DNA from: an uncultured Gammaproteobacteria bacterium
Lineage (GTDB): Bacteria; Patescibacteriota; Microgenomatia; Levybacterales; UBA12049
Length of the DNA stretch: 54,679 nt
Assembly (NCBI GenBank): GCA_964540925.1
Contig: CAZIOR010000002.1
Coordinates: forward strand, 1-54,679
Direction: 5' to 3'
Made by a program: the position numbers and the translations under genes
Notes under the pieces: generated by a model
Seen by the model: the letters and a program-made list of their open reading frames with translations, nothing else
What the model was told of the DNA's origin: nothing
Database searches by the model: none
Shown here: positions 3,634-33,312 of the stretch, piece by piece
How positions within the stretch are numbered: position 1 is the first letter of the stretch
Layout of the letters: each line of letters opens with the position of its first letter

Positions 3634-4230
3634 ATCCACTTTATTTGTTAATCTTTGGAAAAGTAAAACAAATCTATACATTTTTTCATTCAAAAAGAAA
3701 GGCGGATAAGCATCAAAATGCTTAAAATTAGCATTTGGAAAGTATTTTAATATTTTTTGTTTAAATTCATTTTGAGTAAAATGCTGATGATTCTTTAATT
3801 TAGTCACCAAAAAATAAAATAAAGGGTTATATCTATTTCCCTCTAAAATAACAACTGTTGCACCTTTTGCAGACACTCTTCTTACCTCTTCTAATGTTTT
3901 ATCTACATTGTCTACATGATGTAAAAGATCTTTCATATAAACAGCATTAAACTGATTTGTTTTAAAAGGTAATTTTTCTGAATATGTCTTAATAAATTTT
4001 ATCTTCTTACTTTTTATACTTAGCCATGATTTATAAGATATTGCATCTGCCGCAATAACAGTTTTTGCAAATTTAGCAAACTCAACACTATCTAGCGCGA
4101 AACCACAACCTAAATCTAGTAAGTTTTTATTTGAAAACAATCTAACAATTCCTAATTTTTTAAAATAATCCTCTCTAAAAATTGCTGATGGCTTACCAAA
4201 AACATCTCCGTAACTAAACTTTACTTTCAT
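3580..4230 (-). CDS. Class I SAM-dependent methyltransferase
   Basis: LLDLGCGFALDSVEF (motif I), FNAVYMKDLLHHVDNVDKTLEEVRRVSAKGATVVILE. The 3' end overlaps the convergent gene 1744..3633 by 54 nt. Confidence 0.8.
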   Translation of the reverse strand: MKVKFSYGDVFGKPSAIFREDYFKKLGIVRLFSNKNLLDLGCGFALDSVEFAKFAKTVIAADAISYKSWLSIKSKKIKFIKTYSEKLPFKTNQFNAVYMKDLLHHVDNVDKTLEEVRRVSAKGATVVILEGNRYNPLFYFLVTKLKNHQHFTQNEFKQKILKYFPNANFKHFDAYPPFFLNEKMYRFVLLFQRLTNKVDLLKPFFTYNAAVIKVKK

Positions 4231-5989
4231 AATAAAATAAACATAAATAAATAAAAATAAAAATTATCAAAGAAGCTAAGCTAACTATTGATCCAATCAA
4301 AAATTGAGTATTTGTATCTGAATCAATAGCTTGAGTCACAACATTATTACTGTAATGATTAATTTCATAAATTTTTAAACCACCAAAGCTTCTTACAACT
4401 TTTAAATCTGGTATTTTACTTATTAAATTACTCGTCTTTAAATATTCGTTGTGATCATATTTTCTATCTTTAATAAATATTTCTCCCCTATTATCAACTG
4501 GAATAATAATATATTGAACTGAATTGTTGGCCAAATCTTTTAGTTCTGTAGTATTTAATTTACCTACAATTGCCGATGCAGTACTAATTTTAAAATATTG
4601 ATCAGCGGCAACAGCGGGATGCATAGGAGACTGATATGAAAATCTTGAAGGGTGAGGAATCCATAAAGTTCTAGAAAAATTGTTTTGATTACTCATGAAT
4701 TTATCAAATTGAGTATATTCTGCGGGAACAACTGATTTTTGTAATGTACCCGGTAATTTACCTAAATATCCTGGAAGCATTAAGTAAATAAAATAAATCA
4801 TAAAAATTACAGGCAATACTTGGAATATTTTTTTAATCGTACTTAGCTTATATAATGCATAAGGAATCAACACCGAGAATGCTACAGCTGTTAACATGTA
4901 CCATTTTGTTGAATCTCTAAACAGAATAAAACCAGGAACATGGCTAAACATAAATAAATAAGCCGCTCCAAAAATTTCATTTGCACCTTTTCCCAAAAAT
5001 ATTCCCAATAAAGCGACTATTGAGAATAAGATGACATAAAATTTTTCTTTTTTTTCTTTAGTAAGTAATAAAGAACTAAATGCTAAGAGAGGAAGTAGTA
5101 AAAATTCAGGTCTTTGAAAATATATTTTCCCAAAAATATTCTCTGGCCAATTTGGATGAAGAAGACTAAATGAGTTTTCAAATGTTGCAAAGCTAAAAAA
5201 CTTAACTGATTCTAAAGAGGTATATGCATCGCCTAGACTGTTGAATGCGCTAACCCCAGTAAATAATGAAGGAAATATCCAAAATATATTTAAAAATATA
5301 TCTACAAAGATAGGAAATATAAATCCATAAATTATTAATTTATAATCAAATAATTTCTTTGTGGTTATTGTATTCAAAAGGTAAATAATTACCATTATCC
5401 AACCAGTCATATATGTAACTCTCATGTCCAATAGAGTTTGGAGACTTAAGATAAAACCTAGGGAAAGAGATAAGAATAATAATTTTCTAGCTTTTTCTTG
5501 AATTAACAATAAAATTAAGATAATTAAAGGAATTAGTCCATAAGCTATTCCAATCAATACTAATCCTCCAGAAACTAGCATTAAGATATAACTATTTAAA
5601 ACAAAAACTAATGGAGCAATAAAATATATTTTATTATCTGGGAATATTTTTCTAATCAAAGCGATAATCGATACAGTGGAGATTATTAGGAATGGAAACA
5701 GAATAAAAACTCTTTCTAAAAATTCCCAAGGAAGATTAAATATTTTTCCAAAACTTAAAGGAATTGCCATAATGAAATTTACTGCAGAATATAAAATTGA
5801 ACTTCCTCCAAAACCATTATTTGCCCCAAAAAACAAAGCATTCGGAATTAACGTGTGATTATTAAACATTGAAGGGAAAAAATACCATAAATCCCCACCG
5901 GTAATCACTCCTGGTAAAAACCAACTTTTATAAACCCATAATACAGACAATATAAAAAATCCAAATAATAATTTATTTATTTTTTCCAT
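4214..5989 (-). CDS. Polytopic membrane protein, GT-C-like; paralog of 6973..9294 (possibly AftD/DUF3367-like)
   Basis: 591 aa. Shares with 6973..9294 the motifs ITGGDLWYF / ISGDDTRLYY, VPGFILFRDSTKW / VPGFVMFRNFYDKF and PAEYTQFDKFMS / PNEYLDFMS. It has a C-terminal ectodomain plus a terminal TM helix. Confidence 0.5.
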   Translation of the reverse strand: MEKINKLLFGFFILSVLWVYKSWFLPGVITGGDLWYFFPSMFNNHTLIPNALFFGANNGFGGSSILYSAVNFIMAIPLSFGKIFNLPWEFLERVFILFPFLIISTVSIIALIRKIFPDNKIYFIAPLVFVLNSYILMLVSGGLVLIGIAYGLIPLIILILLLIQEKARKLLFLSLSLGFILSLQTLLDMRVTYMTGWIMVIIYLLNTITTKKLFDYKLIIYGFIFPIFVDIFLNIFWIFPSLFTGVSAFNSLGDAYTSLESVKFFSFATFENSFSLLHPNWPENIFGKIYFQRPEFLLLPLLAFSSLLLTKEKKEKFYVILFSIVALLGIFLGKGANEIFGAAYLFMFSHVPGFILFRDSTKWYMLTAVAFSVLIPYALYKLSTIKKIFQVLPVIFMIYFIYLMLPGYLGKLPGTLQKSVVPAEYTQFDKFMSNQNNFSRTLWIPHPSRFSYQSPMHPAVAADQYFKISTASAIVGKLNTTELKDLANNSVQYIIIPVDNRGEIFIKDRKYDHNEYLKTSNLISKIPDLKVVRSFGGLKIYEINHYSNNVVTQAIDSDTNTQFLIGSIVSLASLIIFIFIYLCLFYYESKV

Positions 5990-6989
5990 TATTAAAATTC
6001 CTTATTACATCTAGGTAATTAATTTTATCTTTTGGTTTTTTAGAGAAATCTAATATCAATTGCACTGCACTAATTATTAATATAAAGAATATATAGATAC
6101 TTAATTTATCTAATGCCGGGTCTAGCTTAGAATAACTCATAATCACCAATGCAGTAAACATTAAAATTATATTGATTAAAATACTCACGGAATAATCAAA
6201 TTTATACATAACTACATTAAATATCCAAAAGCCTAATAAGATAAATAATATGCCGGAATTATATTCAACAAAAAATACTGAATCAATAAGAATTAATGCT
6301 ACAGCTAAATATGCTAAATATTGTCTTTTAAATTTAAATTTACGATTTAATTTAATGATTAAAAAATAAAAAAATAAAGGCAAAAAGAAAATAATAGATG
6401 ATAGCAAGAAATCTATATTGATTAAATGTAAATAAATTTTAGTTACAAAGAATTTAACTGTTTTTATTGGACTGGATAAAATTTCTTGTTTTGAATATTT
6501 ATATACCAATGTTACTACGGGCTCATTATTACTAATCATTACTGAGTTTGTTTTCTTACCATCCTCAGATTTTATTTCAAATTCATAAATTTTACCTGCA
6601 GAATTTTCCTGCAACGGAAAGCCAAATGGCAATACAAATGATTTATCAAATTCGCTGATTGGATAAGTGGATGAATATGCAAAATTAGAATTTTTTTCTT
6701 TTATGGAAAAATACAGTCGATCATTTCCATTGTAATTTATTCCTCTATATTTATTAAACTTAACTTGTAAAATCCCTAGATTATTTTTTAAAGCAATAAA
6801 TTCACCTTTAACCGTATCACCCTTTACCATGAAATCTTGTGGAAAATGTTTTATAACATTTTTACTTAATGGATAAACTAATGCTGATACACTGTGAGAA
6901 TTAAATACAATCGCACCAATAAAGCAGACAAAAAACAAAAACAAAGGAATTAACCAATAAATGACAAGTTTGTTATTTTTTATTTTCAT
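5973..6989 (-). CDS. Membrane protein of unknown function (N-terminal TM, beta-rich ectodomain, C-terminal multi-TM block)
   Basis: I start it at the ATG at 6989 (MKIKNNKLVIYWLIPLFLFF). The longer track ORF starting at 7061 would overlap the upstream gene by 89 nt. I recognise no family motif. Confidence 0.5.
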   Translation of the reverse strand: MKIKNNKLVIYWLIPLFLFFVCFIGAIVFNSHSVSALVYPLSKNVIKHFPQDFMVKGDTVKGEFIALKNNLGILQVKFNKYRGINYNGNDRLYFSIKEKNSNFAYSSTYPISEFDKSFVLPFGFPLQENSAGKIYEFEIKSEDGKKTNSVMISNNEPVVTLVYKYSKQEILSSPIKTVKFFVTKIYLHLINIDFLLSSIIFFLPLFFYFLIIKLNRKFKFKRQYLAYLAVALILIDSVFFVEYNSGILFILLGFWIFNVVMYKFDYSVSILINIILMFTALVIMSYSKLDPALDKLSIYIFFILIISAVQLILDFSKKPKDKINYLDVIRNFNNGKNK

Positions 6990-9294
6990 AATATTTATAA
7001 CCCCTGTATAAAAGATAACCGACATTTCCTCCAATAATAAATAATGACAAGATTGTCCCAATATAAAAATAAACTTGAGGCACGAAATAAAGCACTAATC
7101 TTAGATTTACTGAACCATCTTTATTAACCGTATAAGATTCCTTGGTAAAATTATCTCTGACAAATTGTGCATCTATTTGCCACTTATTTATAAAAAAACT
7201 GGTATAGGGTTTGTGGGATTTTTCAAATACCGGTTTTTTAAATAAATAGCTAAGTTCATCTCCTAAAATATACTTATCCGCTTCTTTACATTCAGTAATA
7301 GAATTAATTTTTTCTACAACTCGACAATTTAACTTATTTGATTTGTTGATAAACAACTTCCAACCCGGATGAAATGAATCATAAAAAATAAGGTCTTGTT
7401 TACCGTTAACATTTTTAATTTCTAATTGAAAGTATGTTTCGTTTATTTTTTTAAATGTTAAATTTTTAGTACTAATTAATGTATTTAAATTCTTAAATTT
7501 ATACAATTTATAATTCCCATTTTTACTGGACAATAAAGGTTTTTCATCCACAAGGTAAGCCAACATTTCCTTGCCTTGTCCCTTATTCATCCTCCTGTCA
7601 AAAACCCAAGAATTTAAAACTGTTTGCGGAATATTAGTATTTAAGAAAAGATAGTTTACGTTATAAACATACAAAATTTTACTAAGACTTTTATAATCTT
7701 TATTTATTAGATAATATTCAATCATTCCCTTTGCATCTGAAAAGAAAAATGATAAAAATCCTGATATATCATTTACTCCTGAGAACAATTTAACTGGAGA
7801 TGTTCCTGTATATACACTATTAGAATTCGTATCTTTAATTACTGAATAAAGAGCCGTTCCGAAAGGTACAGTAAATATATTATTAGTTGAAGAAACGTTC
7901 TTTTTGACTTGCGACATAAAATCTAAATATTCGTTTGGAATTTCAATATTTCTATAAATATTTTTAGTCTGCCATAAAGGTGCATTAACAATATTACCTA
8001 CTTGAGTAAAATTAAAAATAATTAAAATTGACAATAAAACAAATATAATATTAAAAAGTTTTAAATTAAATTTCCTGACAGCTGTAAGAGATAAAGCAAG
8101 TAGGACTGAATAAAAAATAACGTATGCTAATGCGAATTTATCATAAAAATTTCTAAACATAACAAAACCAGGAACTTTACCCAACAATAAAAATAGTGGT
8201 TTTAGTGGCCCAATATTAACCGTTAATGCAAATAAGGCAAATAAAAATGCAATAAAAAAGACAATATAAATTCTTTTTTCTTTATTAGATAAGTATTTAT
8301 TTAAAAATAACAATCCTAAAAAAAGTGTGCCTATGAACAAAGAATTTAAAAAATATGTTTTGTCATAGAAGTTTACGAAAACGTTTTGTAAATCCCAACC
8401 AAAATCAAAAACTAAACGCCTATGGAATAGATTCATTAAAGGGTAAATGATGTTGCTATGCGCAGTGGCAAGAACAGTTGGAGTAAAAGTATCGGCCACT
8501 CCCTTTGATAAAATCTTTGAACCATAATTTATATCTGATTTACCAAAATATGTAATTACAAATGACAACAACCAAAAAGATTGAGAGATGGCAATTGAAA
8601 GTAAAAATATAAAAGATCTTACTAAATATTTTTTAACATCTTTAAATTTATCTAAAAAGGAAATTACTACAAAGCCAAGTATAATTGGGACAATAAATGC
8701 AACCCACCATGGAATCGAAAATAAAGCTAGCGAGAACACTATCCAACAAATTACTGCCAAGGAAACGTATTTATAATCATTAGTTTTAATAAATTTTACA
8801 AAAAGATATGAACTTAAAGGTAAGGCAGGAATCAACCAAATTGTTGATAAAAATATAAATAGTTGATTAATAGAAATTATCGGAGAACAAATAAAGAATA
8901 ATGAACTAAGTATTGATATGGAATTTGATTTTTTATTTGCTAATATTTCACTGATGAACATTTGTAAAAATAGAAAACCCAATATTAGGGGTAAACTAAA
9001 AGATAAATAATCTATAACTAACCTAGATTTAAATACTAATTCGAGCATTGTCCATATTAATAAAAAGGGTGTCATAAACTGAGTTGAAGAATAAAAACCT
9101 ACTGAAGAAAAATGATGCCAGGAAGAAAAAGTAAATTCTTTAAAATATTCGTATGGAAAAGCGTAATATAAACGCGTATCATCACCGCTTATATAAAATT
9201 TACCTTTAAAAAGAAAATAGGGTAAAGCCAAAAAAAAGATTGATATTAAGATATTTACAATTAAAATTCTGTGTTTTTTAAATAATCTAATCAT
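6973..9294 (-). CDS. Large polytopic membrane protein, GT-C-like (possibly AftD/DUF3367-like)
   Basis: 773 aa. Roughly 14 TM helices are followed by a ~300-aa ectodomain containing SFHPGWKLFINK and a terminal TM helix. Paralog of 4214..5989 (motifs listed there). Confidence 0.5.
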   Translation of the reverse strand: MIRLFKKHRILIVNILISIFFLALPYFLFKGKFYISGDDTRLYYAFPYEYFKEFTFSSWHHFSSVGFYSSTQFMTPFLLIWTMLELVFKSRLVIDYLSFSLPLILGFLFLQMFISEILANKKSNSISILSSLFFICSPIISINQLFIFLSTIWLIPALPLSSYLFVKFIKTNDYKYVSLAVICWIVFSLALFSIPWWVAFIVPIILGFVVISFLDKFKDVKKYLVRSFIFLLSIAISQSFWLLSFVITYFGKSDINYGSKILSKGVADTFTPTVLATAHSNIIYPLMNLFHRRLVFDFGWDLQNVFVNFYDKTYFLNSLFIGTLFLGLLFLNKYLSNKEKRIYIVFFIAFLFALFALTVNIGPLKPLFLLLGKVPGFVMFRNFYDKFALAYVIFYSVLLALSLTAVRKFNLKLFNIIFVLLSILIIFNFTQVGNIVNAPLWQTKNIYRNIEIPNEYLDFMSQVKKNVSSTNNIFTVPFGTALYSVIKDTNSNSVYTGTSPVKLFSGVNDISGFLSFFFSDAKGMIEYYLINKDYKSLSKILYVYNVNYLFLNTNIPQTVLNSWVFDRRMNKGQGKEMLAYLVDEKPLLSSKNGNYKLYKFKNLNTLISTKNLTFKKINETYFQLEIKNVNGKQDLIFYDSFHPGWKLFINKSNKLNCRVVEKINSITECKEADKYILGDELSYLFKKPVFEKSHKPYTSFFINKWQIDAQFVRDNFTKESYTVNKDGSVNLRLVLYFVPQVYFYIGTILSLFIIGGNVGYLLYRGYKYYENKK

Positions 9295-10087
9295 TCTTCT
9301 TTGACCAAAAACTATTATACGTACTTAACTTATCTAAGAAAACAAAATCTTTTTGTACTTCTTTAACAATTTTCCTATCGACAAAATCTTCTATTAAAAG
9401 AGTTATAGCTTTGGTTTTTTTAATAAATCTTTTTGCCCCTAATAAAGCTGGTAACTCATATCCATCAATGTCTAATTTAACAAATACATGGTCAAATTTA
9501 TTAAGGTATTTTTCTGATAGTAGACTATCTAATGTTTTAACATTAATATCTAAATCATTTTTGCCATTTTTATTACTTAATCCGATTTTCTTTGTTTGAA
9601 CATTTTTAATTTTATTTAATTTTAAATTTTTCAAAAGAAGTTTATATCTTGTTGTTTCCGGCTCAAGAGCAAGAATAGTTAAATTTTTAGGATTTCTTAA
9701 TTTTTTAGAAACTTTGATTGTAAAATCTCCAAAATATGCTCCTACATCTATAAACAAAACTTTTTGCTTTTTGGCTATTTCTTTTTTAATTAGAGAGCTT
9801 ATTTTTTCTATATCCAGTCTTTCAAAAGAAGGAGAAACAACTATTAAACCTTCAAGATTATTCTGAATATAATACTTTCCAAATTTTGTTTCAAAATAAT
9901 CACGTTCAACAATGTTATCGAGTTTAAAACTTTTTTTTCTAAGAACGATAGATAACCATAAGATTTCTGCGTAAATAATTTCCCATTTTCCAACATTTAC
10001 TTCAAAAGGTAATCTTAATAAATTAAACAAATAAAAAAATATAAATCTTATTTTGCCGTATGTTGAAAACGTAAATTTATTATTCAA
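9287..10087 (-). CDS. FkbM-family SAM-dependent methyltransferase
   Basis: FIDVGAYFGDFTIKVSKK...ILALEPETTRYKLLLKNLKLNKIKNVQTKKIGLSNKNG is typical of FkbM/Methyltransf_21. The first codon is TTG (plus-strand caa at 10085-10087) and there is no in-frame ATG before the SAM motif. Confidence 0.75.
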   Translation of the reverse strand: MNNKFTFSTYGKIRFIFFYLFNLLRLPFEVNVGKWEIIYAEILWLSIVLRKKSFKLDNIVERDYFETKFGKYYIQNNLEGLIVVSPSFERLDIEKISSLIKKEIAKKQKVLFIDVGAYFGDFTIKVSKKLRNPKNLTILALEPETTRYKLLLKNLKLNKIKNVQTKKIGLSNKNGKNDLDINVKTLDSLLSEKYLNKFDHVFVKLDIDGYELPALLGAKRFIKKTKAITLLIEDFVDRKIVKEVQKDFVFLDKLSTYNSFWSKKND

Positions 10088-15892: not shown

Positions 15893-15921
15893 AGTATACC
15901 ACAGAAAATAAGACTATTTAA
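15893..15921 (-). promoter_or_regulatory. Internal promoter TTAAAT-17-TGgTATACT with a leadered transcript (AGAGGAG Shine-Dalgarno)
   Basis: The 55-nt gap between the Wzx stop (15914) and the ATG at 15858 reads, on the minus strand, TGGTATACT (15901-15893), then AGAGGAG about 12 nt before the ATG. Confidence 0.35.
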
Positions 15922-17191: not shown

Positions 17192-17192
17192 A

Positions 17193-22643: not shown

Positions 22644-22672
22644 ATAATACTAATTAATCTTTCTTTTTACAA
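22644..22672 (-). promoter_or_regulatory. Candidate promoter TTGTAA-17-TATTAT, 6 nt before the ATG at 22637
   Basis: The minus strand reads TTGTAA (22672-22667), a 17-nt spacer, TATTAT (22649-22644), CAATTT, then ATG. The -35 lies inside the 3' end of the upstream gene. Confidence 0.4.
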
Positions 22673-24290
22673 ATAGATTAATGCTAAAAATTAGAATTAA
22701 TACTCCAATTGCCAATACAGAAAGAGTATCAGAAATAAGTCTTAGTTTTGTTTCTCCAAAAACAACTTTAACCACATATTCACCCCTAGGCAAATTAAAA
22801 AGCATAATTCCCCTATATTCTGGATTTTGAAACTGCACGTCCACAGCTTGTCCATTTGCATAAATTTTCCAGCCTGGAAAAAATAAAGTATTCTCGAGTA
22901 ACTGAGCATCTTCTGAAACTGTAACTTTATACTCATGCAAATTTGCTTTACGCTGTAATTCTTTTATACTTGCGCTTCCCGAAACAACTTCTATATGTGC
23001 CTTGGGTCTCTTTTCCATAAACCTAACAGACCAAATTGGAGCACTTTCTCCAGTATCAGTAGTGCTGTTATAAATTCCTGTATAAAAATCTGCATTTTTA
23101 TATTGATATCCTTTGGGTATGAAATATTGGATACTTACCACTAATACGACTGCAACAACAATTGCGGTAATTAATTTAATATTAATTTTTTTAGCTAAAA
23201 TTTCTACTACATAAACTGATAAAACTGCGGTTGTAAAAACAATTAATGCTAAAAATCTCCATGGAAATTGAAAGTTTTGTAGGAGAATTATTTTGTCCCA
23301 AATAAAATTAGAATAAGGAAGCATAATAAAAATCGAGAGCAGCGTAAAGATAATTAAAAGTAGAATCAAAATAAACTTAACCCTATCTTTTCTAAAGATA
23401 TATGCAGCAATAAATGATGCTAACAGTGCTACCCACTGAACTACACCTAGCTGAACTGTAAACGCTCCAGATCCACCAAAACTCCATGGACCATAAATTA
23501 ACTTAGGTATATTTACAAAATTATTAACATACCCACCTTTAGTTACGATATTTCTTAACGTAAACTTTCCTTCTAGAAGAGCAGGAATCCAGAAAAATGC
23601 AGAAAGCATAAAACCCAAAGAAAAACTTATTAGAAATTTAATTAAATAATCCTTTTTATTTTTTATATCAAAACTTAAAATCAAACCATATAAAAATATA
23701 AAAGGAATACTTATTAAGCTAATTGCATTGTGGGCCAAAATCAAAAATGCGAGAGAAACAGCAATAAAAATAAAATTATTAACCGTCTGTTTTTTTGAAA
23801 ATTTATAAATAAAGAATAAAGTAAGTGGAATAAATGCAAAAGCTAAATTTTCTCCTATATCTCCCCTAACATATAGCTCAACAAACCTGTATGGCGCATA
23901 GGTAAAGAGAAATGCTCCAATTAAAGAAGCATATTTTGAAGAAAATTGAGACAACCATAAATACATAAATACAAATGACAAAATCATTCCCATTCCTAAA
24001 ACTATCTTTACGGAATCAACTAAGGAAAAACCAACAAAATGAAATGCTGAAGCAATATATGAAGGTAGAGGATATAAAAACTGCAAGACTGGGTGCCCAT
24101 ATCCCCAATTTAAATTTTCAGCCCATCTTGGAATTATAACTCCATCTGATAACGCTGCATAGAAATTAGCTATTCTAGCAACATGATCCTGACCATCATG
24201 CGTAATCGGTAAACCTTGATGAAACAAAGAAATAACGGGAATTAGCATAAGAATTATAAATAATATTGTAAAAATCTTTTTAGTTAACAT
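22650..24290 (-). CDS. PTPS-related-type polytopic membrane protein (GT-C-like)
   Basis: HDGQDHVARIANFYAALSDGVIIPRWAENLNWGYGHPVLQFLYPLPSY matches what I remember of the membrane-protein family annotated as 6-pyruvoyl-tetrahydropterin-synthase-related. C-terminal LFFPGWKIYANGQAV plus a terminal TM helix. Confidence 0.6.
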   Translation of the reverse strand: MLTKKIFTILFIILMLIPVISLFHQGLPITHDGQDHVARIANFYAALSDGVIIPRWAENLNWGYGHPVLQFLYPLPSYIASAFHFVGFSLVDSVKIVLGMGMILSFVFMYLWLSQFSSKYASLIGAFLFTYAPYRFVELYVRGDIGENLAFAFIPLTLFFIYKFSKKQTVNNFIFIAVSLAFLILAHNAISLISIPFIFLYGLILSFDIKNKKDYLIKFLISFSLGFMLSAFFWIPALLEGKFTLRNIVTKGGYVNNFVNIPKLIYGPWSFGGSGAFTVQLGVVQWVALLASFIAAYIFRKDRVKFILILLLIIFTLLSIFIMLPYSNFIWDKIILLQNFQFPWRFLALIVFTTAVLSVYVVEILAKKINIKLITAIVVAVVLVVSIQYFIPKGYQYKNADFYTGIYNSTTDTGESAPIWSVRFMEKRPKAHIEVVSGSASIKELQRKANLHEYKVTVSEDAQLLENTLFFPGWKIYANGQAVDVQFQNPEYRGIMLFNLPRGEYVVKVVFGETKLRLISDTLSVLAIGVLILIFSINLFVKRKIN

Positions 24291-24292
24291 AT

Positions 24293-25573
24293 TTAATTGT
24301 TCCTCTTTGCCTTTTCAATTTCTTCATTTTTCTTTGTTAAATAATAAAAGATGTATACTTCTGAAACCCCTTGCTGCCATTCCATAGTTCTTTTTTCCAT
24401 AATTGCTTTTTCCGCTGTGGGAGTTAAAAACTTTAATGCATTAAGTTCTTTGTAATTAACATAATTGGTAATATTGGTGTAAGCAATTATTAATAGAGAT
24501 AAAATAATTAATATTTTGATTAAAATATTCTTAAAACTAAAAACAAAATCTAAAACGTAAGCTATCATGATTAAGGCAATAAAACGATTAATAGAGTAGT
24601 AATAGTCCGTTAATTCACCATTGTAGGTAGTAAAAACAAACCAAGGAACCATAAACCATAATAAAATTAAATAACAAAATATTATTTCATTTCTTGATCT
24701 TGATTTAAAAAACCGTATTGCAAAAAAAGCAGGAAATATTAAAAATCTAAGAAAAAATAATTTATCCCAAGCAAGGTATGGCTTAAATTCAATTAATGCA
24801 TCTCCCGCTAGTTGCATTAATCTTCGCAAATGAAATCCATGATAACTTTGACTTAAATATCCAAATGAATTTCCTGATTTTTGCTGTAATTGATAAACAA
24901 TATTAGGAATTAGCCAAATTATAAAAAATGGTAAAGAAAGTAATCCATACTTTACCATTTCTTTTGTTCTAGGAAAAAATGGTAAAGATAACAAAATTAT
25001 TATTGGAAAAAAAATGGCTGTAAAATGAATATTAAAAGCTAACCCAACAATAAATGCCAAAGGAATAACTTTTTTAACATCTCCTTGCAATAACCTATAA
25101 AGACAATAAAAGATTAAAAGTGAAATTGAAGGAATAAAAGCAACGGGCCACTGAACCCTATCAAAAAATATTGCCGCGGTAGTAAATGTATTTATAAATA
25201 TCGCAAATAGTGCGACCCTTTCTGAGAATAATTTTTTTGCAATAAAATATATAACCCAAAATGTAAATATACTTGTGACACCAGCTATTATTGGGGATGC
25301 AATTGGATTGAGATTAGTTAAGAAATAAAATAAAGCAACAAAGTAATAATAAGCAGGGCCAATAAATATTCCAGTATTTGCCTTTGCAACCATACCAACT
25401 AATGGGTATTTATGGTCAACTAACATGGTCTTCGCTGCCCAGGCATTATCAACCTGATCATATCCAAATCCATTTTTAATATCTAGCTGGTAAAAACGCA
25501 GAAATAGTTCAAATAAAAATATTAAAATTACAAAAAGTAAGTATTTATTTTTAAATAAATTCTTTAATTTCAT
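24293..25573 (-). CDS. GT-C glycosyltransferase, PMT_2/ArnT-like
   Basis: 426 aa, polytopic. The first loop FGYDQVDNAWAAKTMLVDHKYPLVGMVAKANTGIFIGPAYYYF is the same subtype as the C-terminal domain of 20355..22637. Confidence 0.6.
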   Translation of the reverse strand: MKLKNLFKNKYLLFVILIFLFELFLRFYQLDIKNGFGYDQVDNAWAAKTMLVDHKYPLVGMVAKANTGIFIGPAYYYFVALFYFLTNLNPIASPIIAGVTSIFTFWVIYFIAKKLFSERVALFAIFINTFTTAAIFFDRVQWPVAFIPSISLLIFYCLYRLLQGDVKKVIPLAFIVGLAFNIHFTAIFFPIIILLSLPFFPRTKEMVKYGLLSLPFFIIWLIPNIVYQLQQKSGNSFGYLSQSYHGFHLRRLMQLAGDALIEFKPYLAWDKLFFLRFLIFPAFFAIRFFKSRSRNEIIFCYLILLWFMVPWFVFTTYNGELTDYYYSINRFIALIMIAYVLDFVFSFKNILIKILIILSLLIIAYTNITNYVNYKELNALKFLTPTAEKAIMEKRTMEWQQGVSEVYIFYYLTKKNEEIEKAKRNN

Positions 25574-27219
25574 TTTTCAACAATTACAATTGCTGGACTT
25601 CCGTTTAAATTCTTTATTACTTTAGTCGCAAATTTTGGAGCAATTTCTTGAGCCGTGGCAACGATCATCGTATCTCGTAATTTATAATCCTTTTCCCAAT
25701 CAATATTTCTAAAAATAAATTTATCAAATTTATGATGATAATCAAATTGTCCACTACTATTAATTCCAACTTTTTGATATTCAGCTGGTGGATACTTTAA
25801 GTAAAATAAAAAGAACATATATGATTTATCCATTGGTTCCCTATCGGAAATAATAATTTTGTCATATTTATCATATTTACTTACAACTTCAGCTACGGCT
25901 TGCTTGTATCCATACTGCCAATCTTGACTTGTGTAGTAATTTAACTGAACGAAATATTGATTGAGATAATAAACAACATTAAATGTAGAAAGTAAAAGAA
26001 AAACAGAAATGGCAAAATACTTTATTCTTTTATATTGCAAAATAAAATACAAACTACTTATAAGTCCAACAGCTGACAATATTTGCCAAGTTGGTAAAAA
26101 ATTTAATGTTCTAACAGCATGCGGCACGCCAGTTGTTATTGACGCCGGAACGGGTGCAAGCAAAAACCATCCTAAAATAGTTAATTTGGCTTTCCTATCG
26201 ATATCTGAATATAACAATTTATAGATACCAATTAAAATAAATGGTAATTCAAATAAATATATAATTCCAACATTTGGAGCATGGTGTCTTAAAATATCAC
26301 CTGAGGTAAACAGCCAATTAAGATCAAAATGAGAGATGTATCCATAAACGATTGTTTTAGCATATACAACTCTTCTATTGTCCAAAACTAATCCCAGATA
26401 ATCTTTATTTGCCTTATCTCTTTCGAGTTTTTGAATATTATTTTTAAGAATCTCTGTTTGATAGTTAAAAATGCTGGTTCCTTTAACTCTAAGAAGCGCT
26501 GATTTATCAGTTAAGATATAAAATATCATTGGCGAAATAACAATTAAACCAACAATAACTGCTAACACAAGGTACTTCTTTTTTAATGCAAACAAAGCTT
26601 TGCGGAAAACAAAAACCAACAATAATGCAAGTAATGGTGTAAAAACCTTGTCGCTTTGGTATGTATAAATACTAAATGCACCCATTGCTGCAGACAAGCC
26701 TAATAATAATGGTTTTTTTAAACCTTTTACAAAAAATAGAGCCATTAAAATATTAAATGCATCACCTACATTAGACTCAAAACCAATTCTCGAAAATTGT
26801 AATGACCAAGGCGAAATTGCAAATAAGAATGACGAGATTAAGGCGAGCTGATCTTTATATTTGTATTTCTCAAATATTTCTCTTATTAAGAAAAATAAAG
26901 CAATTGTCGCAATAACGCCAAAAACCGCAGACGGAAGCCTAACTGCAAAAGTATTTAAACCAAATATGGCAACGCTTGGAATAGCTAAGTATGCATACAT
27001 TGCAGGCTTGTAATCATTAAATGATCTTAAAACTACTGGTAGGAATTTTCCATACTCATCTCGTCCAGTATGTAAAATTGAATATGCATCGTAACCTAAA
27101 GCCACCTCGTCCCAATCAGGAGATGGAGGGGTATTTCCAAGTTGCCATAATCTAAGAACTACTGACAAAATAATTATGCCAATAAAAAGTATTCCAATAA
27201 TTTTTTTATTTATATTCAT
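25570..27219 (-). CDS. GT39/ArnT-like GT-C glycosyltransferase (paralog family A)
   Basis: PPSPDWDEVALGYDAYSILHTGRDEYGKFLPVVLRSFNDYKPAMYAYL, RLPSAVFG, VPHAVRT. The track start at 27225 is a TTG; I use the ATG at 27219. Confidence 0.75.
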   Translation of the reverse strand: MNINKKIIGILFIGIIILSVVLRLWQLGNTPPSPDWDEVALGYDAYSILHTGRDEYGKFLPVVLRSFNDYKPAMYAYLAIPSVAIFGLNTFAVRLPSAVFGVIATIALFFLIREIFEKYKYKDQLALISSFLFAISPWSLQFSRIGFESNVGDAFNILMALFFVKGLKKPLLLGLSAAMGAFSIYTYQSDKVFTPLLALLLVFVFRKALFALKKKYLVLAVIVGLIVISPMIFYILTDKSALLRVKGTSIFNYQTEILKNNIQKLERDKANKDYLGLVLDNRRVVYAKTIVYGYISHFDLNWLFTSGDILRHHAPNVGIIYLFELPFILIGIYKLLYSDIDRKAKLTILGWFLLAPVPASITTGVPHAVRTLNFLPTWQILSAVGLISSLYFILQYKRIKYFAISVFLLLSTFNVVYYLNQYFVQLNYYTSQDWQYGYKQAVAEVVSKYDKYDKIIISDREPMDKSYMFFLFYLKYPPAEYQKVGINSSGQFDYHHKFDKFIFRNIDWEKDYKLRDTMIVATAQEIAPKFATKVIKNLNGSPAIVIVEK

Positions 27220-28837
27220 AAGCAACTAATACTGTTTTACCATTTAACAAAGTGAATGTCTTTTTAATAATAATGTTTTCAGGCAATGTATATGGTGTAT
27301 TTATATATAAAACATTTTTTTTACTAGACAAACTGTAATCAAATTTACCAGGAAAAAGATATTTACCAACTCTTTGTACTGTAACAAAGCCAAACGGGTC
27401 ACGCTCTACATCAGAATTTTTTCTGAAGTATTCTGGCGAAATCTTGTTATAAAACAAGTGATAAGCATAAGGCCTACCAAGCGCAGTGGTCATGACTATA
27501 TTGTCATAATTTCCCTCAACAGATTTTGCATACGCAAGCGACTCTTTGTACCCATATTGCCATTCTCCTGAGTAATCAATTGCATAATGCTTATCTAGAG
27601 AATGATAGAAATAAATAAAGTTACCAAGTAAAAGAACCAATAACCCAGTCATAATTAAATTTTGTCTTTTCTTAAATTGATTAAGAAAATTGACAAAACC
27701 ATAAGCAACAAGAATTTGAAAAGTTGGAAGAGTAGTTTCAATTCTTAAAGCATGGGGAGTTTCTCTGGCCAGTCCTGCTGGCACTATTCCAAATAGAAGC
27801 CAAGCAGGGATAAGCCACCAGGCTCCTTCTCTCTTCTTAAACAGTAAAAATGCACCACCCACAAAAAATACAATATCCCAAATATACATTTGTCCTACAT
27901 CTTGAATAGAAAACTTTGGATTACCATCACCTCTAATAAATAAGAAATTCGGTGATAAATTATCAAAATAATGTTTGAAAAATTCTAAAGTATACAAAAC
28001 CCTTCTGTTATGAATTATTTTAGACCAAGCTGCGTTATTATCATTTGCCACTTGTTGGTTTGCTGAGGATATGACTGTTGAATCAGAAAAAATATTTACC
28101 TCTTTATACCTAAGTCCTGCTTGAGGAGAAAGTAAAAATGGAAATAACGGTAAAAATACTATTAAACCTAAAATTAAAGCAAAAAACGTTTGAGTTTTAA
28201 TTTGAATAAGTTTTTTCCAATAAAAAAGACTCAAAATAATTACTAAAAATGGCGAAACGATTCTTGCCGTGTTAAAAACATACATCGAAGCTGCAAAAAA
28301 GAAAGCAGAAATAAGTAAATACCACTTTCTATTCCCTACACCCGCTAAAAATGCCCAAACTCCAGTTATTATAAAAAAAGTCGCAACGTTAGCTTCAAAT
28401 GCTGCTCGAGAAAGCATAATATGCCAAGGAGAAATTGCTAAAAATAGACTTGTAAATAATGCATATTTTTCTTTATTTTCTGAGTTCTCAAATAATCTTT
28501 TAACTAAAAAATAAGCTATCAAAACAGTCAAAACACCAAACATGGCAGAAGGAAATCTAGTAGCAAATTCTGTTAACCCAAAAATTTTTACGGGGATAAT
28601 AGCTAAGTATGCATAAAGTGGTGGTTTAAAATCTCCAAATGATTCAAGGAAATTAAATGGTAAAAATCTACCAAACTCATCCTTACCATCTATACCCAAT
28701 GAGTATGCGTTATATCCCCAGGCTGTCTCATCCCAAGTGAGACTCGGTGGATTAGTTGAAATCTGGTTAAATCTTAAAAAAGCAGCAATAAGTAGGATTA
28801 GAAGAAGTAAAATAATGTTTTTATATTTTCTGATCAT
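27206..28837 (-). CDS. GT39/ArnT-like GT-C glycosyltransferase (paralog family A)
   Basis: PPSLTWDETAWGYNAYSLGIDGKDEFGRFLPFNFLESFGDFKPPLYAYL, RFPSAMFG, TPHALRI. The track start at 28855 is a GTG; the ATG at 28837 forms an ATGA overlap with the upstream methyltransferase stop. Confidence 0.75.
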   Translation of the reverse strand: MIRKYKNIILLLLILLIAAFLRFNQISTNPPSLTWDETAWGYNAYSLGIDGKDEFGRFLPFNFLESFGDFKPPLYAYLAIIPVKIFGLTEFATRFPSAMFGVLTVLIAYFLVKRLFENSENKEKYALFTSLFLAISPWHIMLSRAAFEANVATFFIITGVWAFLAGVGNRKWYLLISAFFFAASMYVFNTARIVSPFLVIILSLFYWKKLIQIKTQTFFALILGLIVFLPLFPFLLSPQAGLRYKEVNIFSDSTVISSANQQVANDNNAAWSKIIHNRRVLYTLEFFKHYFDNLSPNFLFIRGDGNPKFSIQDVGQMYIWDIVFFVGGAFLLFKKREGAWWLIPAWLLFGIVPAGLARETPHALRIETTLPTFQILVAYGFVNFLNQFKKRQNLIMTGLLVLLLGNFIYFYHSLDKHYAIDYSGEWQYGYKESLAYAKSVEGNYDNIVMTTALGRPYAYHLFYNKISPEYFRKNSDVERDPFGFVTVQRVGKYLFPGKFDYSLSSKKNVLYINTPYTLPENIIIKKTFTLLNGKTVLVAYEYK

Positions 28838-29418
28838 TTTTCTACAACAAACCACATATTTAAATAAGCTTCAAAATAACCTCTTTTAATTTTGCCTCTA
28901 TTAAAGTTACTACTTTCAATTATATCTAATATTTTACTCTGATTGTAATGGCTTTTATGATCATGTATTTCCTCTGAGCTAATAAGCCCGAAACGTGCCA
29001 TATGATGTAAAAGCTTATCTGACCAAGGCGAAGGAGTTGTAATAATTAGTTTTCCTTTTGGCTTTAAAACTCTATTTATTTCTTTTAAAGCAAATATAAG
29101 CCTATCTTTCTCTATATGCTCAAAAACAGCCAGCATCGTAACCACTTCAAAAGAATTATTTTTAAAAGGAAGTTTTTCCTTTGCTATATCTATTTTTTGC
29201 AATTTAATACCCTTTATTTGAACATTAACAGCAGGGTCTATGCCAAATTTGTTTTTAAATTTTGTAGATACTAAAAAATGAGGATAAAAACCACAGCCAA
29301 TATCCAAAATGCTCCCCATTCTTGATGAATTTGAAATAAATTCATTAGCTTTTTGGGCTCTTTTTTCTGAAAGTAATTTTTCTAATAAACCTGCCCCGCG
29401 GGTGAAATTGGTAGTCAT
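28834..29418 (-). CDS. Class I SAM-dependent methyltransferase
   Basis: ILDIGCGFYPHFL (motif I), FEVVTMLAVFEHIEKDRLIFALKEINRVLKPKGKLIITTP. Confidence 0.8.
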   Translation of the reverse strand: MTTNFTRGAGLLEKLLSEKRAQKANEFISNSSRMGSILDIGCGFYPHFLVSTKFKNKFGIDPAVNVQIKGIKLQKIDIAKEKLPFKNNSFEVVTMLAVFEHIEKDRLIFALKEINRVLKPKGKLIITTPSPWSDKLLHHMARFGLISSEEIHDHKSHYNQSKILDIIESSNFNRGKIKRGYFEAYLNMWFVVEK

Positions 29419-29420
29419 AA

Positions 29421-30131
29421 TTAATTGGTGAATCTATATTTGAAAAGATTCCAAATAGCTTTACTCCCATCTCTAAAGGTATTCAATTTTTTACCCTCAT
29501 CATAGCCTCTTGGAGTTACTTCAATTGGTACTTCTAAAATCTTAAATTTCTTTTTCATTAATTTAGCTGTTATCTCAGGTTCAAACTCAAATCCTCTTGC
29601 ATTCAACTTAATTCCATTTAATGCATTTGCAGGAAACAGCTTGTAGCAAGTTTCCATATCTGTAATCCACTGTCCATACAAAATGCTGGTACATAAACTT
29701 AAAAACCTATTGCCTAAAAAATGTAATAAAAATCTAAAGGTTTTTTCTTCTTTTTTTAGATTAGGTTTTCTTTTAAGTCTTGTTCCATAAACAACTTCAG
29801 CTTTTTTAGCTAAAATTGGCTCCATCAAACTATTAATGAATTTAGGATCATATTCTAAGTCTGCATCCTGAATGATAATATAGTCTCCAGTTGCCTCTTT
29901 GATACCTCTAATAACTGCAGCGCCTTTGCCTTGATTTTTAGGTTGAAAAAATATTTTTAAATCTCTTGCTTTAAATTTGTTAAGTTTTTCTTTTGTAGAG
30001 TCAGTAGAACCATCATCAACCACAATTATTTCTTTAGTTACATTATTAATTTTCTGATCAATAACTCTATCTAAAACCTGAGTTATGGTTTTTTCTTCAT
30101 TAAAAACTGGAACAACAATAGATAATTTCAT
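29421..30131 (-). CDS. GT2 glycosyltransferase, DPM1-like polyprenyl-phosphate-sugar synthase
   Basis: [14 protein letters not shown]...[44 protein letters not shown]. 236 aa with no TM helix. Confidence 0.8.
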
Positions 30132-31051
30132 TTTGAATAAATGCTGGTAACTTCTTTATCTGTTTTACTAAACAGCTTGGTATTATTATATCTATAATGT
30201 AATACTTTTGGAATATTTAATATAGCCTTAATAAGACCTAAATAAAATGCATACTCTCCTTTTAATAATGTATTTAGAAAATGATAGGGAAGCCAAATAA
30301 AATGACTTAGTATTAAATTTAAATCAGTTACATTTGTCCAGACAAAATAAAACATATTTCTATATACAATTGACTGTACGTATGATTTTTTAAATTGTTT
30401 TTTAATAACTCCTTTTTCATGCTCATGATAAACCACACTTTTGGGTTCAAAAATTAATTTATAACCTGATTTTAACGCTCTATAAGATAAATCAATGTCT
30501 TCCCAATAAAATGGGCTAAAAAGTGGATCTAAACCTCCTAGTTTATCCCAAATTGATTTTCTAAATGCACCACTTCCACCACTAACCCATAATGTATCTT
30601 TCGCATCCACTTCTCCACGTGAATGCACTAAGAAGCCTCTTTTCCATGAACCAATACCTCTTCCACGCAAAATATACCCATCTTTTTCAACACTTTTATC
30701 CATACAGCCAACAGCAAATACCTCATTGTCATTAAAATTTGCAACTAAAGGCTCTAAGAATCCTGATTCAGGATAAACATCAGTGTTTAGCAAAAGAATA
30801 ATTTCGCCTGATGCTTTTGCTACTCCATAATTGACTGTTTTTGAGAAACCAACATTTTTAGGGTTTTGTAGAAACTGTATATTCGCAAGAGACTGAAGAT
30901 AAGTTACTGAATTATCAATAGAAGCATCATCAACAACAATAATTTCGTATTTCCCTTTTTTATATTTATTTAACTCTTGAATAAGCTTAGGAAGATTCTT
31001 TTTTAAAAGATCTTCCCCATTATAATTTGGTATAACAACACTAATATTCAT
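30128..31051 (-). CDS. GT2 family glycosyltransferase
   Basis: [14 protein letters not shown]...[38 protein letters not shown]. Confidence 0.85.
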
Positions 31052-31053
31052 CT

Positions 31054-33312
31054 TTAAAACAAAGTATTATAAAAAACAACTTTATGATTTCCAGCTGGAA
31101 TAATTAAGCCTCTAAAATTATAGTCTGTTAAATAAATATTTGCATCTTTGCCGTCAACACTTGCCTTCCAAGTTGGATAATAACTATCAGTTAAAATTAA
31201 AAAACCTTCTTTTTCATTTTCTGTATTTATTTCTACTTTGTTTGCAGCGTAATCTACTATTTTTACCTCTCCAACATTCCAAGATCTATCCCAACTATTA
31301 TCATTCGACGCCACAACAGCTCTTTGATTTAATGGAATATTTTCATAAAGTTTGCTTATTTCCTCCTGCTTTGTCGCAGCATTAATCGTTCTTTGAATAA
31401 AGAAAGCTCTTGGTATTGCACCATTATTTTCATAAATCATTGTTTTTCCTTCTGTTAGCACTTTTACATATTTACCATCATTAATTTGTTCAGAAGTTAA
31501 AATATATTTAACACCTAACAAATCAATAAGTGGAGATTTATAATTTTCAATCTTTATGATCCTATTAAATCCAAATGGTGGATCTATATCTGGACCGTTT
31601 CTACCAATACTTGCCATTAACTCTCCATATCTTTGCAAATATAATGGGTCATAACCATCAATGCTTTGCAGTTTATACATGATTGAAAAATTGGGAGGGA
31701 AAATTTCTCCATTTGTTTCCATCACTCTCCATAGTCCAGCATTTTTTTGCAGATATGAAAGTGTTTTAGTAGTTGGATATAGATATTCTTGCTTTGAAAA
31801 AGTTAAATATTTCCAACCCATTCTAAATAAATCAAAAGTATTAACAACAACAAGTAGCATAATTAAATATTTAATTATGTTTTGTTTGTTTTTTAAAACC
31901 AATAGATAGTTAACAATAAGAAGAATCGTAAGTATTATAAAAATTACTGATGGAAAAATTAAATTTCTTTTACTTACAAGTATATTTTCTAAAGAAATAC
32001 TTCCCAATCCATTAAGTAATACAAATATCCAAAGACTGACAAATATTAAAATGAAAATAAATAAATTAATAAATACTTTTTTATCTTTTTTCTTTTCAAT
32101 AAACTCGTTGAGTCCATAGGCTGCAAGAATTACTAAGCAAAAATCGATAATTGCCAAAAGTCTTGTTGGTTGAGATGTAGATATAAAAGGAATTTGTAAG
32201 TAAAAAGGAAGTTTGGAAATAAAATTAGGAAATACTAGGACAATTGAAGTAAATAAAGTAAATATAAAAAATACCTTTTCTTTATTTACTTTAAACAAAG
32301 AATATATGGCAAAAAATAGTGCAACTATTCCAATGTAACCGATAAATTCTCCATAATTCCATTCACCAAAATAATTCAATGTGGTTGGATTTCCAAAAAA
32401 ATCAGGAGCAATAAACTGAATTATGTTTTGCAAAGGAATAAACCAGCCCTTAGTAAGCCAATCTACTTGATCAGAATTTCTAGCAGATAAATTAATTAAT
32501 TGAAAAACCGAATAAATACTTGGAAAAGCTAAAACAACAAAAATTGTATTTGTAAATAAAAATGCCAGAAAACCTTTAAGCAAACGTTTATTTAAAAATA
32601 ATTTATAAATAAAATATAATGAAGAAATTAAAAATACATAAAAAAAGATTTGCAAATGTCCTGCAAAAAAAGACGTCATTAGAGAAATTGAATATATTCC
32701 TAACCAAAATATTAAATTTTTAAATTTATTTAAATTCCCTAAAATTTTATCTATTGCTAAAAACAATAATGGTGTCCAAAGATAAACACTCACTACATTG
32801 CCCCACTCCATCCAAGAAATTGCAAAACCACAAAATGCAAAAGACAATGAACCAAAAACAACAGCCTTTATATCTAGCTTTAAATTTCTTAGAAACAAAA
32901 ACATAAATAAAGCTGCAAGAATTGGCTGCGAAACGATCAATAAGCTCCAGGCAAAACTAAATGGAAATATAAAAAATAGAATATTTAAAGGATAAAAGGC
33001 CGCTGACTGAAAATTTGCTAAAAGTGGAGTACCAGAAAATGAATAAGGATTCCAAAGTGGCAATTGAAACTTTTTCTCTGCTTCAATAATTAAATTTTTC
33101 CAGGGATATTGTTGTCTCACCGGATCTGTAGTTAAAAAATTTTTAAACGGAACTCCATTAGGGTATAGATTTGCGTAACTATCTCGATATGGATGATATA
33201 GGCCAACAATTGTATCCGAGGGAATAGGCAATAAATTTTTTACAAAAATATCCTTAAAGAAAATTGATATTAAAATTATATAAATTGAGAGTAGAATAAT
33301 TTTTATTTTCAT
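31054..33312 (-). CDS. YfhO-family GT-C-type membrane glycosyltransferase
   Basis: LWNPYSFSGTPLLANFQSAAFYPLNILFF (YfhO signature). Polytopic core, with a C-terminal ectodomain containing SYYPTWKASVDGKDANIY. Confidence 0.8.
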   Translation of the reverse strand: MKIKIILLSIYIILISIFFKDIFVKNLLPIPSDTIVGLYHPYRDSYANLYPNGVPFKNFLTTDPVRQQYPWKNLIIEAEKKFQLPLWNPYSFSGTPLLANFQSAAFYPLNILFFIFPFSFAWSLLIVSQPILAALFMFLFLRNLKLDIKAVVFGSLSFAFCGFAISWMEWGNVVSVYLWTPLLFLAIDKILGNLNKFKNLIFWLGIYSISLMTSFFAGHLQIFFYVFLISSLYFIYKLFLNKRLLKGFLAFLFTNTIFVVLAFPSIYSVFQLINLSARNSDQVDWLTKGWFIPLQNIIQFIAPDFFGNPTTLNYFGEWNYGEFIGYIGIVALFFAIYSLFKVNKEKVFFIFTLFTSIVLVFPNFISKLPFYLQIPFISTSQPTRLLAIIDFCLVILAAYGLNEFIEKKKDKKVFINLFIFILIFVSLWIFVLLNGLGSISLENILVSKRNLIFPSVIFIILTILLIVNYLLVLKNKQNIIKYLIMLLVVVNTFDLFRMGWKYLTFSKQEYLYPTTKTLSYLQKNAGLWRVMETNGEIFPPNFSIMYKLQSIDGYDPLYLQRYGELMASIGRNGPDIDPPFGFNRIIKIENYKSPLIDLLGVKYILTSEQINDGKYVKVLTEGKTMIYENNGAIPRAFFIQRTINAATKQEEISKLYENIPLNQRAVVASNDNSWDRSWNVGEVKIVDYAANKVEINTENEKEGFLILTDSYYPTWKASVDGKDANIYLTDYNFRGLIIPAGNHKVVFYNTLF

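Follow-up and report, generated by a model that had tools for sequence, protein, structure and literature searches.

The central synthase, methyltransferase, and GT-C genes

The DNA analyzed here (the window) is a stretch of 54,679 nucleotides, positions 1 to 54,679 of contig CAZIOR010000002.1, in which a gene for a DPM1-like putative polyprenyl-phosphate sugar synthase is followed by a gene for a class I S-adenosylmethionine (SAM)-dependent methyltransferase, MT2, and then by an array of glycosyltransferase (GT) genes of the GT-C type (Table 1). Two nucleotides (29419-29420) separate the synthase gene from MT2, and an ATGA overlap at 28834-28837, read in the sequence, joins MT2 to the GT-C gene 27206-28837, which is predicted to be translationally coupled to MT2 through it. 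This GT-C gene in turn overlaps the next by 14 nucleotides (27206-27219). All open reading frames (ORFs), their order, and the gaps and overlaps between them lie as an earlier sequence-only reading of the window had described them. Its family labels also hold, for the DPM1-like GT2, the ArnC/GtrB-like protein 11-946, the class I and FkbM methyltransferases, the PMT/PMT_2 proteins, and the YfhO relationship of 1744-3633. We find that, on sequence evidence, bacteria and archaea alike keep MT2 as a conserved partner of the DPM1-like synthase, which is a broader association than that reading had seen.

The product of 29421-30131, a putative synthase that would load a monosaccharide onto polyprenyl phosphate, spans in alignment the whole catalytic domain of the Pyrococcus furiosus dolichol phosphate (Dol-P)-mannose synthase PfDPMS (5mlz, E = 2e-22, residues 1-231), its DADLE motif being aligned to DADLQH of PfDPMS. 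In PfDPMS, the phosphate of Dol-P is bound by Arg117, Arg131, and Ser135 (PMC5526996), and the window protein has an equivalent of Arg117 (TR to SR). The NCBIfam models AglJ and PpgS also cover the protein over its full length, with scores under their cutoffs. Downstream of MT2, the ORFs 27206-28855 and 25570-27225 gave PMT/PMT_2 matches, and upstream the ORF 31054-33312 matched YfhO; each has 7-13 predicted transmembrane (TM) helices.

Table 1. Features of the window discussed in the text, the central block first
Feature	Coordinates	Strand	Evidence
YfhO-type GT-C, head of conserved block	31054..33312	-	Pfam YfhO, E 1e-23
GT2 glycosyltransferase, 307 aa, directly upstream of synthase	30128..31051	-	Pfam
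Putative DPM1-like polyprenyl-phosphate sugar synthase, GT2, 236 aa, no TM helix	29421..30131	-	Pfam GT2
Class I SAM methyltransferase MT2, 194 aa, soluble	28834..29418	-	Methyltransf_11/23
GT-C glycosyltransferase, GT39-like	27206..28837	-	Pfam PMT PF02366, PMT_2 PF13231
Second GT-C, paralogue of 27206-28837	25570..27219	-	Pfam PMT_2; 262 bits to 27206-28837
PMT_2 GT-C, downstream in array	24293..25573	-	Pfam
PTPS_related GT-C, downstream end of array	22650..24290	-	Pfam
ArnC/GtrB-like polyprenyl-phosphate sugar synthase, divergent from MT1	11..946	-	NCBIfam ArnC, 186 bits full-length, below cutoff; two C-terminal TM helices
Class I methyltransferase MT1, C-terminal TM anchor	1025..1747	+	Methyltransf_11; TM helix near residue 208
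YfhO-related polytopic protein, 629 aa, ATGA-coupled to MT1	1744..3633	+	phmmer E 3e-15 to YfhO protein 46726-49074; 9 TM helices
Class I methyltransferase MT3	3580..4230	-	Methyltransf_11
Predicted GT-C-fold protein, Patescibacteria family without Pfam model	4214..5989	-	AF2 pLDDT 83; Foldseek AftD, STT3, DPY19, ArnT
Homologue of 4214-5989 family, GT-C by inference	6973..9294	-	hhalign probability 98.3%, E 2.5e-14, 514 columns
FkbM-family methyltransferase	9287..10087	-	PF05050, 43.7 bits vs cutoff 22.7; TIGR01444, 61.1 vs 37.7

The MT2 family

MT2 belongs to a tight, unnamed family of 190-200 residues (about 195), with a mean column identity of 69% in an alignment of 24 sequences and with the invariant motifs TRGxG, DIGCG, MLAVFEH, TTPxPW, EEIHxHK, and NMWF. 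The elements expected of a class I methyltransferase are present, because SAM motif I (DIGCG, of the GxGxG type) is intact and, like D61, the acidic residue expected after strand 2, invariant. No TM helix is predicted, and the AF2 model (pLDDT 86) has a generic class I fold with a Foldseek probability of 1.0 to many class I methyltransferases. A strongly basic segment makes up the first 32 residues (mean net charge of +4.5). Membership of a ubiquinone-type methyltransferase family, which the sequence-only reading had raised as a point that would speak against its proposal, was not supported. Identity with the quinone methyltransferases UbiE, UbiG, or MenG was rejected for MT2 at 18-30 bits against cutoffs of 103-420, and MT3, another of the four methyltransferases in the window, reached 19-43 bits with the same models, a likeness at the level of the fold only.

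A profile search of 1.84 billion representatives yielded 280 members of the family at E <= 1e-30, and in a scan with a single genome for each species it also turned up outside the candidate phyla radiation (CPR), at 40-55% identity. The hosts include Patescibacteria, DPANN archaea, Acidobacteria, Deltaproteobacteria (among them Geobacter hydrogenophilus DSM 13691, Syntrophus, and Syntrophorhabdus), Planctomycetota, Nitrospirota, Spirochaetota, Chloroflexi, Actinomycetota, and Dormibacterota; besides CPR and DPANN archaea, at least 10 further phyla are represented. No annotated relative on a plasmid was found by tblastn. MT2 and the synthase are together common to CPR bacteria and metagenome-assembled genomes (MAGs) labeled as DPANN archaea, at 50-55% identity (loci L019, L023, L024, L026, L033-L036, L044, and L066), which suggests either that the pair has moved laterally between these two groups of ultra-small cells or that there are binning errors.

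Conservation of the MT2 neighborhood

We called ORFs in 80 MT2 loci and classified them by comparison with the proteins of the window, an orthologous synthase being one whose best match in the window is 29421-30131. In the 68 loci in which both neighbors of MT2 are present, an orthologous synthase lies directly beside MT2 in 39 and no more than five genes away in 53. Given presence within five genes, such adjacency has a binomial probability of 6e-17 under uniform placement. The adjoining synthases are close relatives of the window synthase, with a median of 205 bits to 29421-30131 compared with 69-81 bits for the window's own paralogues of it. Among the 40 adjoining pairs in the full set of 80 loci, the synthase is upstream on the same strand in 22 and downstream on the same strand in 3, and the two genes are divergent in 7 and convergent in 8. 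All four orientations occur, which argues that selection has kept the two genes close and that they are not simply a frozen operon.

Either a synthase or a GT-C-like protein adjoins MT2 in every one of the 30 loci that are CPR-like and in 19 of the 29 from other bacteria. The neighbors outside CPR comprise short PMT_2 proteins, PTPS_related proteins, a 9-TM protein with tetratricopeptide repeats, and LPG_synthase_TM proteins, which resemble the MprF flippase. In G. hydrogenophilus (L074), the synthase (9257-9952) and the methyltransferase (9971-10588) are flanked by polytopic proteins of 534 and 542 residues. In a Spirochaetota MAG (L056, 10690-17820), four paralogues of 565-583 residues with 13-14 TM helices are arrayed in tandem after the synthase-methyltransferase pair, and the first of them was scanned and gave no Pfam match.

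Within Patescibacteria, the order of the whole block is kept, with a YfhO gene, a GT2 gene (~310 residues), the DPM1-like synthase (~235 residues), zero to three GT-C genes, the methyltransferase, and an array of PMT-type GT-C genes, of which related loci have 4-5 downstream of MT2. The YfhO slot is retained in L001-L014, and a GT2 of 305-322 residues occupies the same place upstream of the synthase in L001, L004, L005, and L007-L016. The stop codon of MT2 overlaps the start of the next GT-C gene by 4 nucleotides, and that gene is the orthologue of 27206-28837 (700-1130 bits) in seven loci (L001, L004, L005, L006, L009, L012, and L016). The nearest locus, L005, has an MT2 of 87% identity and the same gene order as the window, and most other close matches come from Patescibacteria or Levybacteria MAGs. 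The order of the genes, whose conservation in related genomes the sequence-only reading had put forward as a check, is thus kept for this central triad, though not for a second triad at the left edge of the window (see below), and in the comparative data the central synthase/MT2/GT-C unit is the only part of the pattern that goes beyond chance.

Natural fusions of the MT2 domain

The MT2 domain also occurs within larger proteins, as judged from Pfam matches. Fusions to GT2 domains have the forms GT2+MT (P0405), GT2+GtrA_DPMS_TM+MT (P0414), and MT+GT2 (P0423), and their GT2 parts are orthologous to 29421-30131, with 153-171 bits over residues 1-233 compared with 58-72 bits to its paralogues. 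GtrA_DPMS_TM is joined to the MT2 domain in either order in three further proteins (P0479, P0384, and P0431), LPG_synthase_TM precedes it in another (P0365), and YfhO does so in P0380, a fusion seen in two independent assemblies with the orthologous synthase gene after it in each. The apparently complete fusions have even numbers of TM helices, and the methyltransferase domain is therefore placed on the cytoplasmic side together with the GT2 domain. By domain assignment, MT2 is thus fused, across lineages, to each component of the three-component systems that make, flip, and use polyprenyl-phosphate sugars. Taken together, the adjacency across phyla and the fusions to enzymes of all three steps argue that MT2 probably makes a methylated lipid-linked sugar donor.

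A proposed pathway and its alternatives

We propose that MT2 is a dedicated cytoplasmic fourth component of the three-component polyprenyl-phosphate-sugar pathway, which would methylate the lipid-linked monosaccharide before it is flipped; in our judgment, this detailed form of the proposal is an even call. The DPM1-like GT2 29421-30131 would attach a hexose to polyprenyl phosphate on the inner membrane face, MT2 would O-methylate the lipid-linked monosaccharide with SAM, the methyl-sugar-P-polyprenol would be flipped, and the coupled GT-C 27206-28837, and probably its paralogues too, would move the methyl-sugar to an extracytoplasmic acceptor. MT2 is linked to genes for the synthase, for flippase-like domains, and for GT-C proteins, it occurs in fusions, it is soluble, and its SAM motifs are intact. 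The observed linkage to the synthase, GT-C, and flippase-like proteins agrees with the prediction for a cytoplasmic step in a lipid-linked sugar pathway, whereas the substrate, the methylated position, the sugar, and the acceptor are what we infer from this setting. Methylation before flipping, which the sequence-only reading had suggested from a recurrent synthase/methyltransferase/GT-C order, is in this way supported for MT2 by adjacency and fusions and does not extend as a window-wide rule to MT1, MT3, and the FkbM protein.

Several observations weigh against the proposal. The synthase is not beside MT2 in ~40% of loci and is not within five genes of it in 15 of 68. The substrate of MT2 could not be read from NCBIfam, a PDB sequence search, or Foldseek, each of which gave generic class I matches only. 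In the synthase, the region corresponding to Arg131 and Ser135 of PfDPMS aligns poorly and allows no reliable pairing of these residues. No GtrA-like gene adjoins the central triad in the window, and no flippase gene was identified beside it. The ORF calling and TM counts behind the comparisons are crude, and the clade labels are taken from MAG titles. Finally, the fusions and the adjacency are equally compatible with methylation of a nucleotide sugar.

This last point leads to the main alternative, that MT2 methylates a nucleotide sugar (e.g. GDP- or UDP-hexose) before the synthase transfers it, in which case the donor of the GT-C would still be a methyl-sugar-P-polyprenol. Both the adjacency of synthase and MT2 and the GT2+MT fusions would suit substrate channeling in either order, and a soluble MT2 without a TM helix is also what this alternative would have. 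Where MT2 is fused to YfhO or to membrane domains of the GtrA and MprF types, however, it is placed at the membrane, near the flipping and transfer machinery, and the basic N terminus fits an anionic membrane or phosphate surface, although this is a weak point. Sugar O-methylation usually follows glycosyl transfer, as with the macrolide sugar O-methyltransferases, the Rmt enzymes of glycopeptidolipids, WbdD, and AglP, and at the level of the nucleoside diphosphate sugar O-methylation is rare, whereas C- and N-methylation are common there. Because MT2 is fused to flippase-like and GT-C membrane proteins and O-methylation generally comes after glycosyl transfer, we rank methylation of a nucleotide sugar lower than methylation of the lipid-linked monosaccharide and consider it rather unlikely.

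Less probable again is that MT2 acts elsewhere in an envelope pathway, on an undecaprenyl diphosphate-linked acceptor glycan, on the polyprenyl carrier, or on the head group of a glycolipid or phospholipid, or that methylation is a transient translocation signal and no part of the final glycan. The top Foldseek matches of MT2 do include the lipid head-group methyltransferases PmtA (8ys9) and PfPMT, but these likenesses are generic (TM-score of 0.6-0.7, 10-20% identity). The window also encodes Wzx-type flippases together with GT4 and GT2 enzymes that build lipid-linked oligosaccharides, and the fusion of MT2 to flippase-like domains would suit an action of this kind, yet the commonest partner of MT2, also by fusion, is the monosaccharide synthase and not the GTs that build oligosaccharides. 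A transient methylation of dolichyl oligosaccharides in Halobacterium is said to have been described by Lechner et al. in 1985 and would be a precedent for the signal variant. Very improbable for MT2 is the absence of any specific coupling, in which methyltransferases would lie beside GT-C genes simply because GT-C genes crowd the island and its junctions mostly overlap: it draws on the P of 0.21 for the four adjacencies in the window, on the 27 of 37 junctions that overlap, and on the lack of conservation of the left-edge triad, but is contradicted by the adjacency seen across phyla (P~6e-17) and by several fusions that are independent of one another. We therefore regard this reading as refuted for MT2, and we prefer it for the other three methyltransferases.

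The other three methyltransferases

The sequence-only reading had stated that every methyltransferase in the window is coupled to a GT-C gene. The adjacencies exist, with overlaps at the left edge of 4 nucleotides at 1744-1747, 17 at 4214-4230, and 8 at 9287-9294, but they are not beyond chance. Because 18 of the 42 genes are of the GT-C type, random gene orders brought each of the four methyltransferases into contact with a GT-C gene in 21% of trials, and in 12% when only the 15 GT-Cs with Pfam support were counted. Overlap itself is common, as 27 of the 37 same-strand junctions in the window overlap, 13 of these 27 by exactly 4 nucleotides. On the permutation test and the junction statistics we rejected the window-wide rule as expected by chance. 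The occurrence of two synthase-methyltransferase-GT-C triads is mildly unusual (0.8% of trials with two synthases, 3.6% with four), but the window has ~5 such synthases, and this pattern was picked after the data had been viewed.

The left-edge triad of the ArnC/GtrB-like synthase, MT1, and the 629-residue YfhO-related protein is not conserved. MT1 is a member of a Patescibacteria family whose surroundings, in five distinct neighborhoods, contain nucleotide-sugar epimerases or dehydratases, GT4 and GT2 enzymes, a hexapeptide acetyltransferase, and other methyltransferases. A GtrB-like synthase is never beside the MT1 homologues in these five neighborhoods, and the 629-residue gene, whose product has no Pfam match, is absent from the closest MT1 locus (L091, 65% identity) and missing from the neighborhoods of the MT1 relatives. 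A conserved triad at this edge was rejected on these grounds. In four of the five neighborhoods, MT1 relatives lie 1-3 genes from GT-Cs of the family of 4214-5989, described below. For MT3 and the FkbM gene, a single close relative, again L091, retains the block (MT3-595-337-772), and no synthase is attached to either gene. In our preferred reading, MT1, MT3, and the FkbM protein are ordinary glycan-tailoring enzymes that contact GT-C genes as the gene density predicts.

A GT-C family without a Pfam model and the remainder of the window

The protein 4214-5989 has no Pfam match and no match in a PDB sequence search, but the Foldseek matches of its AF2 model include AftD (E = 1e-6, TM-score on the query of 0.58), and G32-D33 is invariant near the N terminus of its family, in agreement with the acidic residue found in the first external loop of GT-C enzymes. 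The earlier GT-C label of this protein is thus upheld by the model and that of 6973-9294 by hhalign, and both belong, on the predicted fold, to the GT-C superfamily. The family occurs throughout Patescibacteria (~680 residues) and has neither a Pfam nor an NCBIfam model. Its members in L085-L088 are 1336-1364 residues long with matches to GDSL lipase domains, and L091 also has a member.

The window (GC of ~29%) holds 42 closely packed ORFs of at least 120 residues, which we classified by family models (Pfam and NCBIfam), TM counting, sequence and profile comparison (phmmer and hhalign), and structure prediction. Of these, 18 are GT-C-like polytopic proteins. This amounts to an extreme density of 18 extracytoplasmic glycosyltransferase-like genes in 54.7 kb, from at least four subfamilies (PMT/PMT_2, YfhO, PTPS_related, and the family without a Pfam model). 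There are in addition ~12 GT2 genes, ~5 of which resemble synthases of polyprenyl-phosphate sugars, as well as three GT4 genes, two MOP proteins of the Wzx-like kind (15914-17200 and 39580-41034), RmlD, an epimerase, and the four methyltransferases. We interpret the window as an island for glycan synthesis in the genome of a Levybacteria-like member of the Patescibacteria. Seven related loci (L005, L006, L008, L013, L014, L028, and L032) are titled "uncultured Gammaproteobacteria bacterium" despite Patescibacteria gene content and order, and these titles are probably taxonomic mislabels of the MAGs.

Two polytopic proteins gave no Pfam match, 52307-53482 (minus strand, 391 residues, 10 TM helices) and 5973-7061 (minus strand, 362 residues, 6 TM helices), and they are candidates for the flippase role that was not located beside the triad. 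The single 760-residue ORF at 20355-22637 (minus strand) combines an N-terminal GT2 domain (residues 6-126), which by phmmer is not DPM1-like, with a PMT_2-type GT-C of 10 TM helices. Where program-called ORFs begin at TTG, they overlap their upstream neighbors extensively (34664-37135 and 36993-37751 by 143 nucleotides, 5973-7061 and 6973-9294 by 89), and their true starts probably lie further downstream.

Comparison with known systems

As in the three-component systems (GtrA/GtrB/Gtr for O-antigen and CsbB/GtcA/YfhO for teichoic acid), a GT2 synthase and GT-C proteins (PMT_2, YfhO) are encoded here in one operon, and relatives carry GtrA-type or other flippase-like domains. The locus differs from these systems in having an extra conserved SAM methyltransferase, a DPM1-like synthase without TM helices, and no GtrA gene beside the triad, and in having arrays of 4-6 GT-C paralogues where they have a single GT-C.

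The Arn pathway (ArnC, ArnD, ArnE/F, and ArnT), whose acceptor is lipid A, consists of a GT2 synthase, cytoplasmic deformylation of the undecaprenyl phosphate (Und-P)-sugar by ArnD, a flippase, and a GT-C. Its tailoring enzyme is a deformylase and not a methyltransferase, and the window protein 11-946 resembles ArnC only below the family cutoff. A methyltransferase is known from archaeal N-glycosylation, where AglP modifies the hexuronic acid of a Dol-P-bound tetrasaccharide and not a separately flipped monosaccharide donor. The likeness to the present locus is that AglP, a SAM-dependent methyltransferase, works in the Dol-P-based pathway of Haloferax volcanii, to which a Dol-P-mannose synthase, a flippase factor, and a transferase dependent on Dol-P-Man also belong (AglD/AglR/AglS; PMC3871713).

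Further parallels are pathways with cytoplasmic editing of a polyprenyl-phosphate monosaccharide followed by a GT-C (PMC11127046), the same four-component logic as we propose for MT2. In the pentofuranose system of Citrobacter youngae O2, the cytoplasmic short-chain dehydrogenase/reductase epimerase ORF13 turns undP-Ribf into undP-Xylf before export, and in the mycobacterial decaprenylphosphoryl arabinose pathway DprE1/E2 and the phosphatase Rv3807c edit the lipid-linked monosaccharide, again before export (PMC11127046). These pathways differ from the present one in that the edit is an epimerization or a dephosphorylation, the initial donor is phosphoribosyl pyrophosphate, and the synthase is of another family (PMC11127046). 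A methyl-bearing sugar on decaprenyl phosphate is the GT-C donor in the methylthioxylose capping of mycobacterial lipoarabinomannan by MtxS/MtxT (PMC11127046), but there the methyl(thio) group comes ready-made from 5'-methylthioadenosine and no methyltransferase acts on the lipid-linked sugar. The gsf cluster of Actinoplanes contains a GtrA system with a methyltransferase nearby, but no methylated donor is proposed in that work (PMC13390465). In the literature, most subscription journals being outside the scope of the search, we found no description of methylated Und-P or Dol-P monosaccharide donors or of CPR GT-C clusters. The view of the sequence-only reading that no described system has this logic consequently stands, within that search, for a methylated monosaccharide donor and falls for cytoplasmic editing before export as such.

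Significance

Plain polyprenyl-phosphate sugars are commonly regarded as the donors of extracytoplasmic glycosylation, and the cytoplasmic edits known for such donors before export are limited to those of an epimerase, a deformylase, and a phosphatase. We found no description of a methylation version, and a conserved methyltransferase partner would add methylated donors to these edits. More tentatively than for the locus itself, the widespread MT2 family could make methyl-hexose-P-polyprenol on the cytoplasmic face as a distinct class of GT-C donor, and would then be a fourth component without earlier description. During the assembly of extracytoplasmic glycans, the methyl group might cap the chain and so terminate it, or might tag the sugar for selectivity or flipping. 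If correct, the proposal would explain the presence of O-methyl sugars in glycans that are assembled outside the membrane, where SAM is absent, and would open a way into the envelope loci of Patescibacteria, which are unusually rich in GT-C genes; G. hydrogenophilus DSM 13691 is a culturable carrier of the MT2 family. An unnamed family, represented by hundreds of members in CPR bacteria, DPANN archaea, and many cultured phyla, would moreover gain a function.

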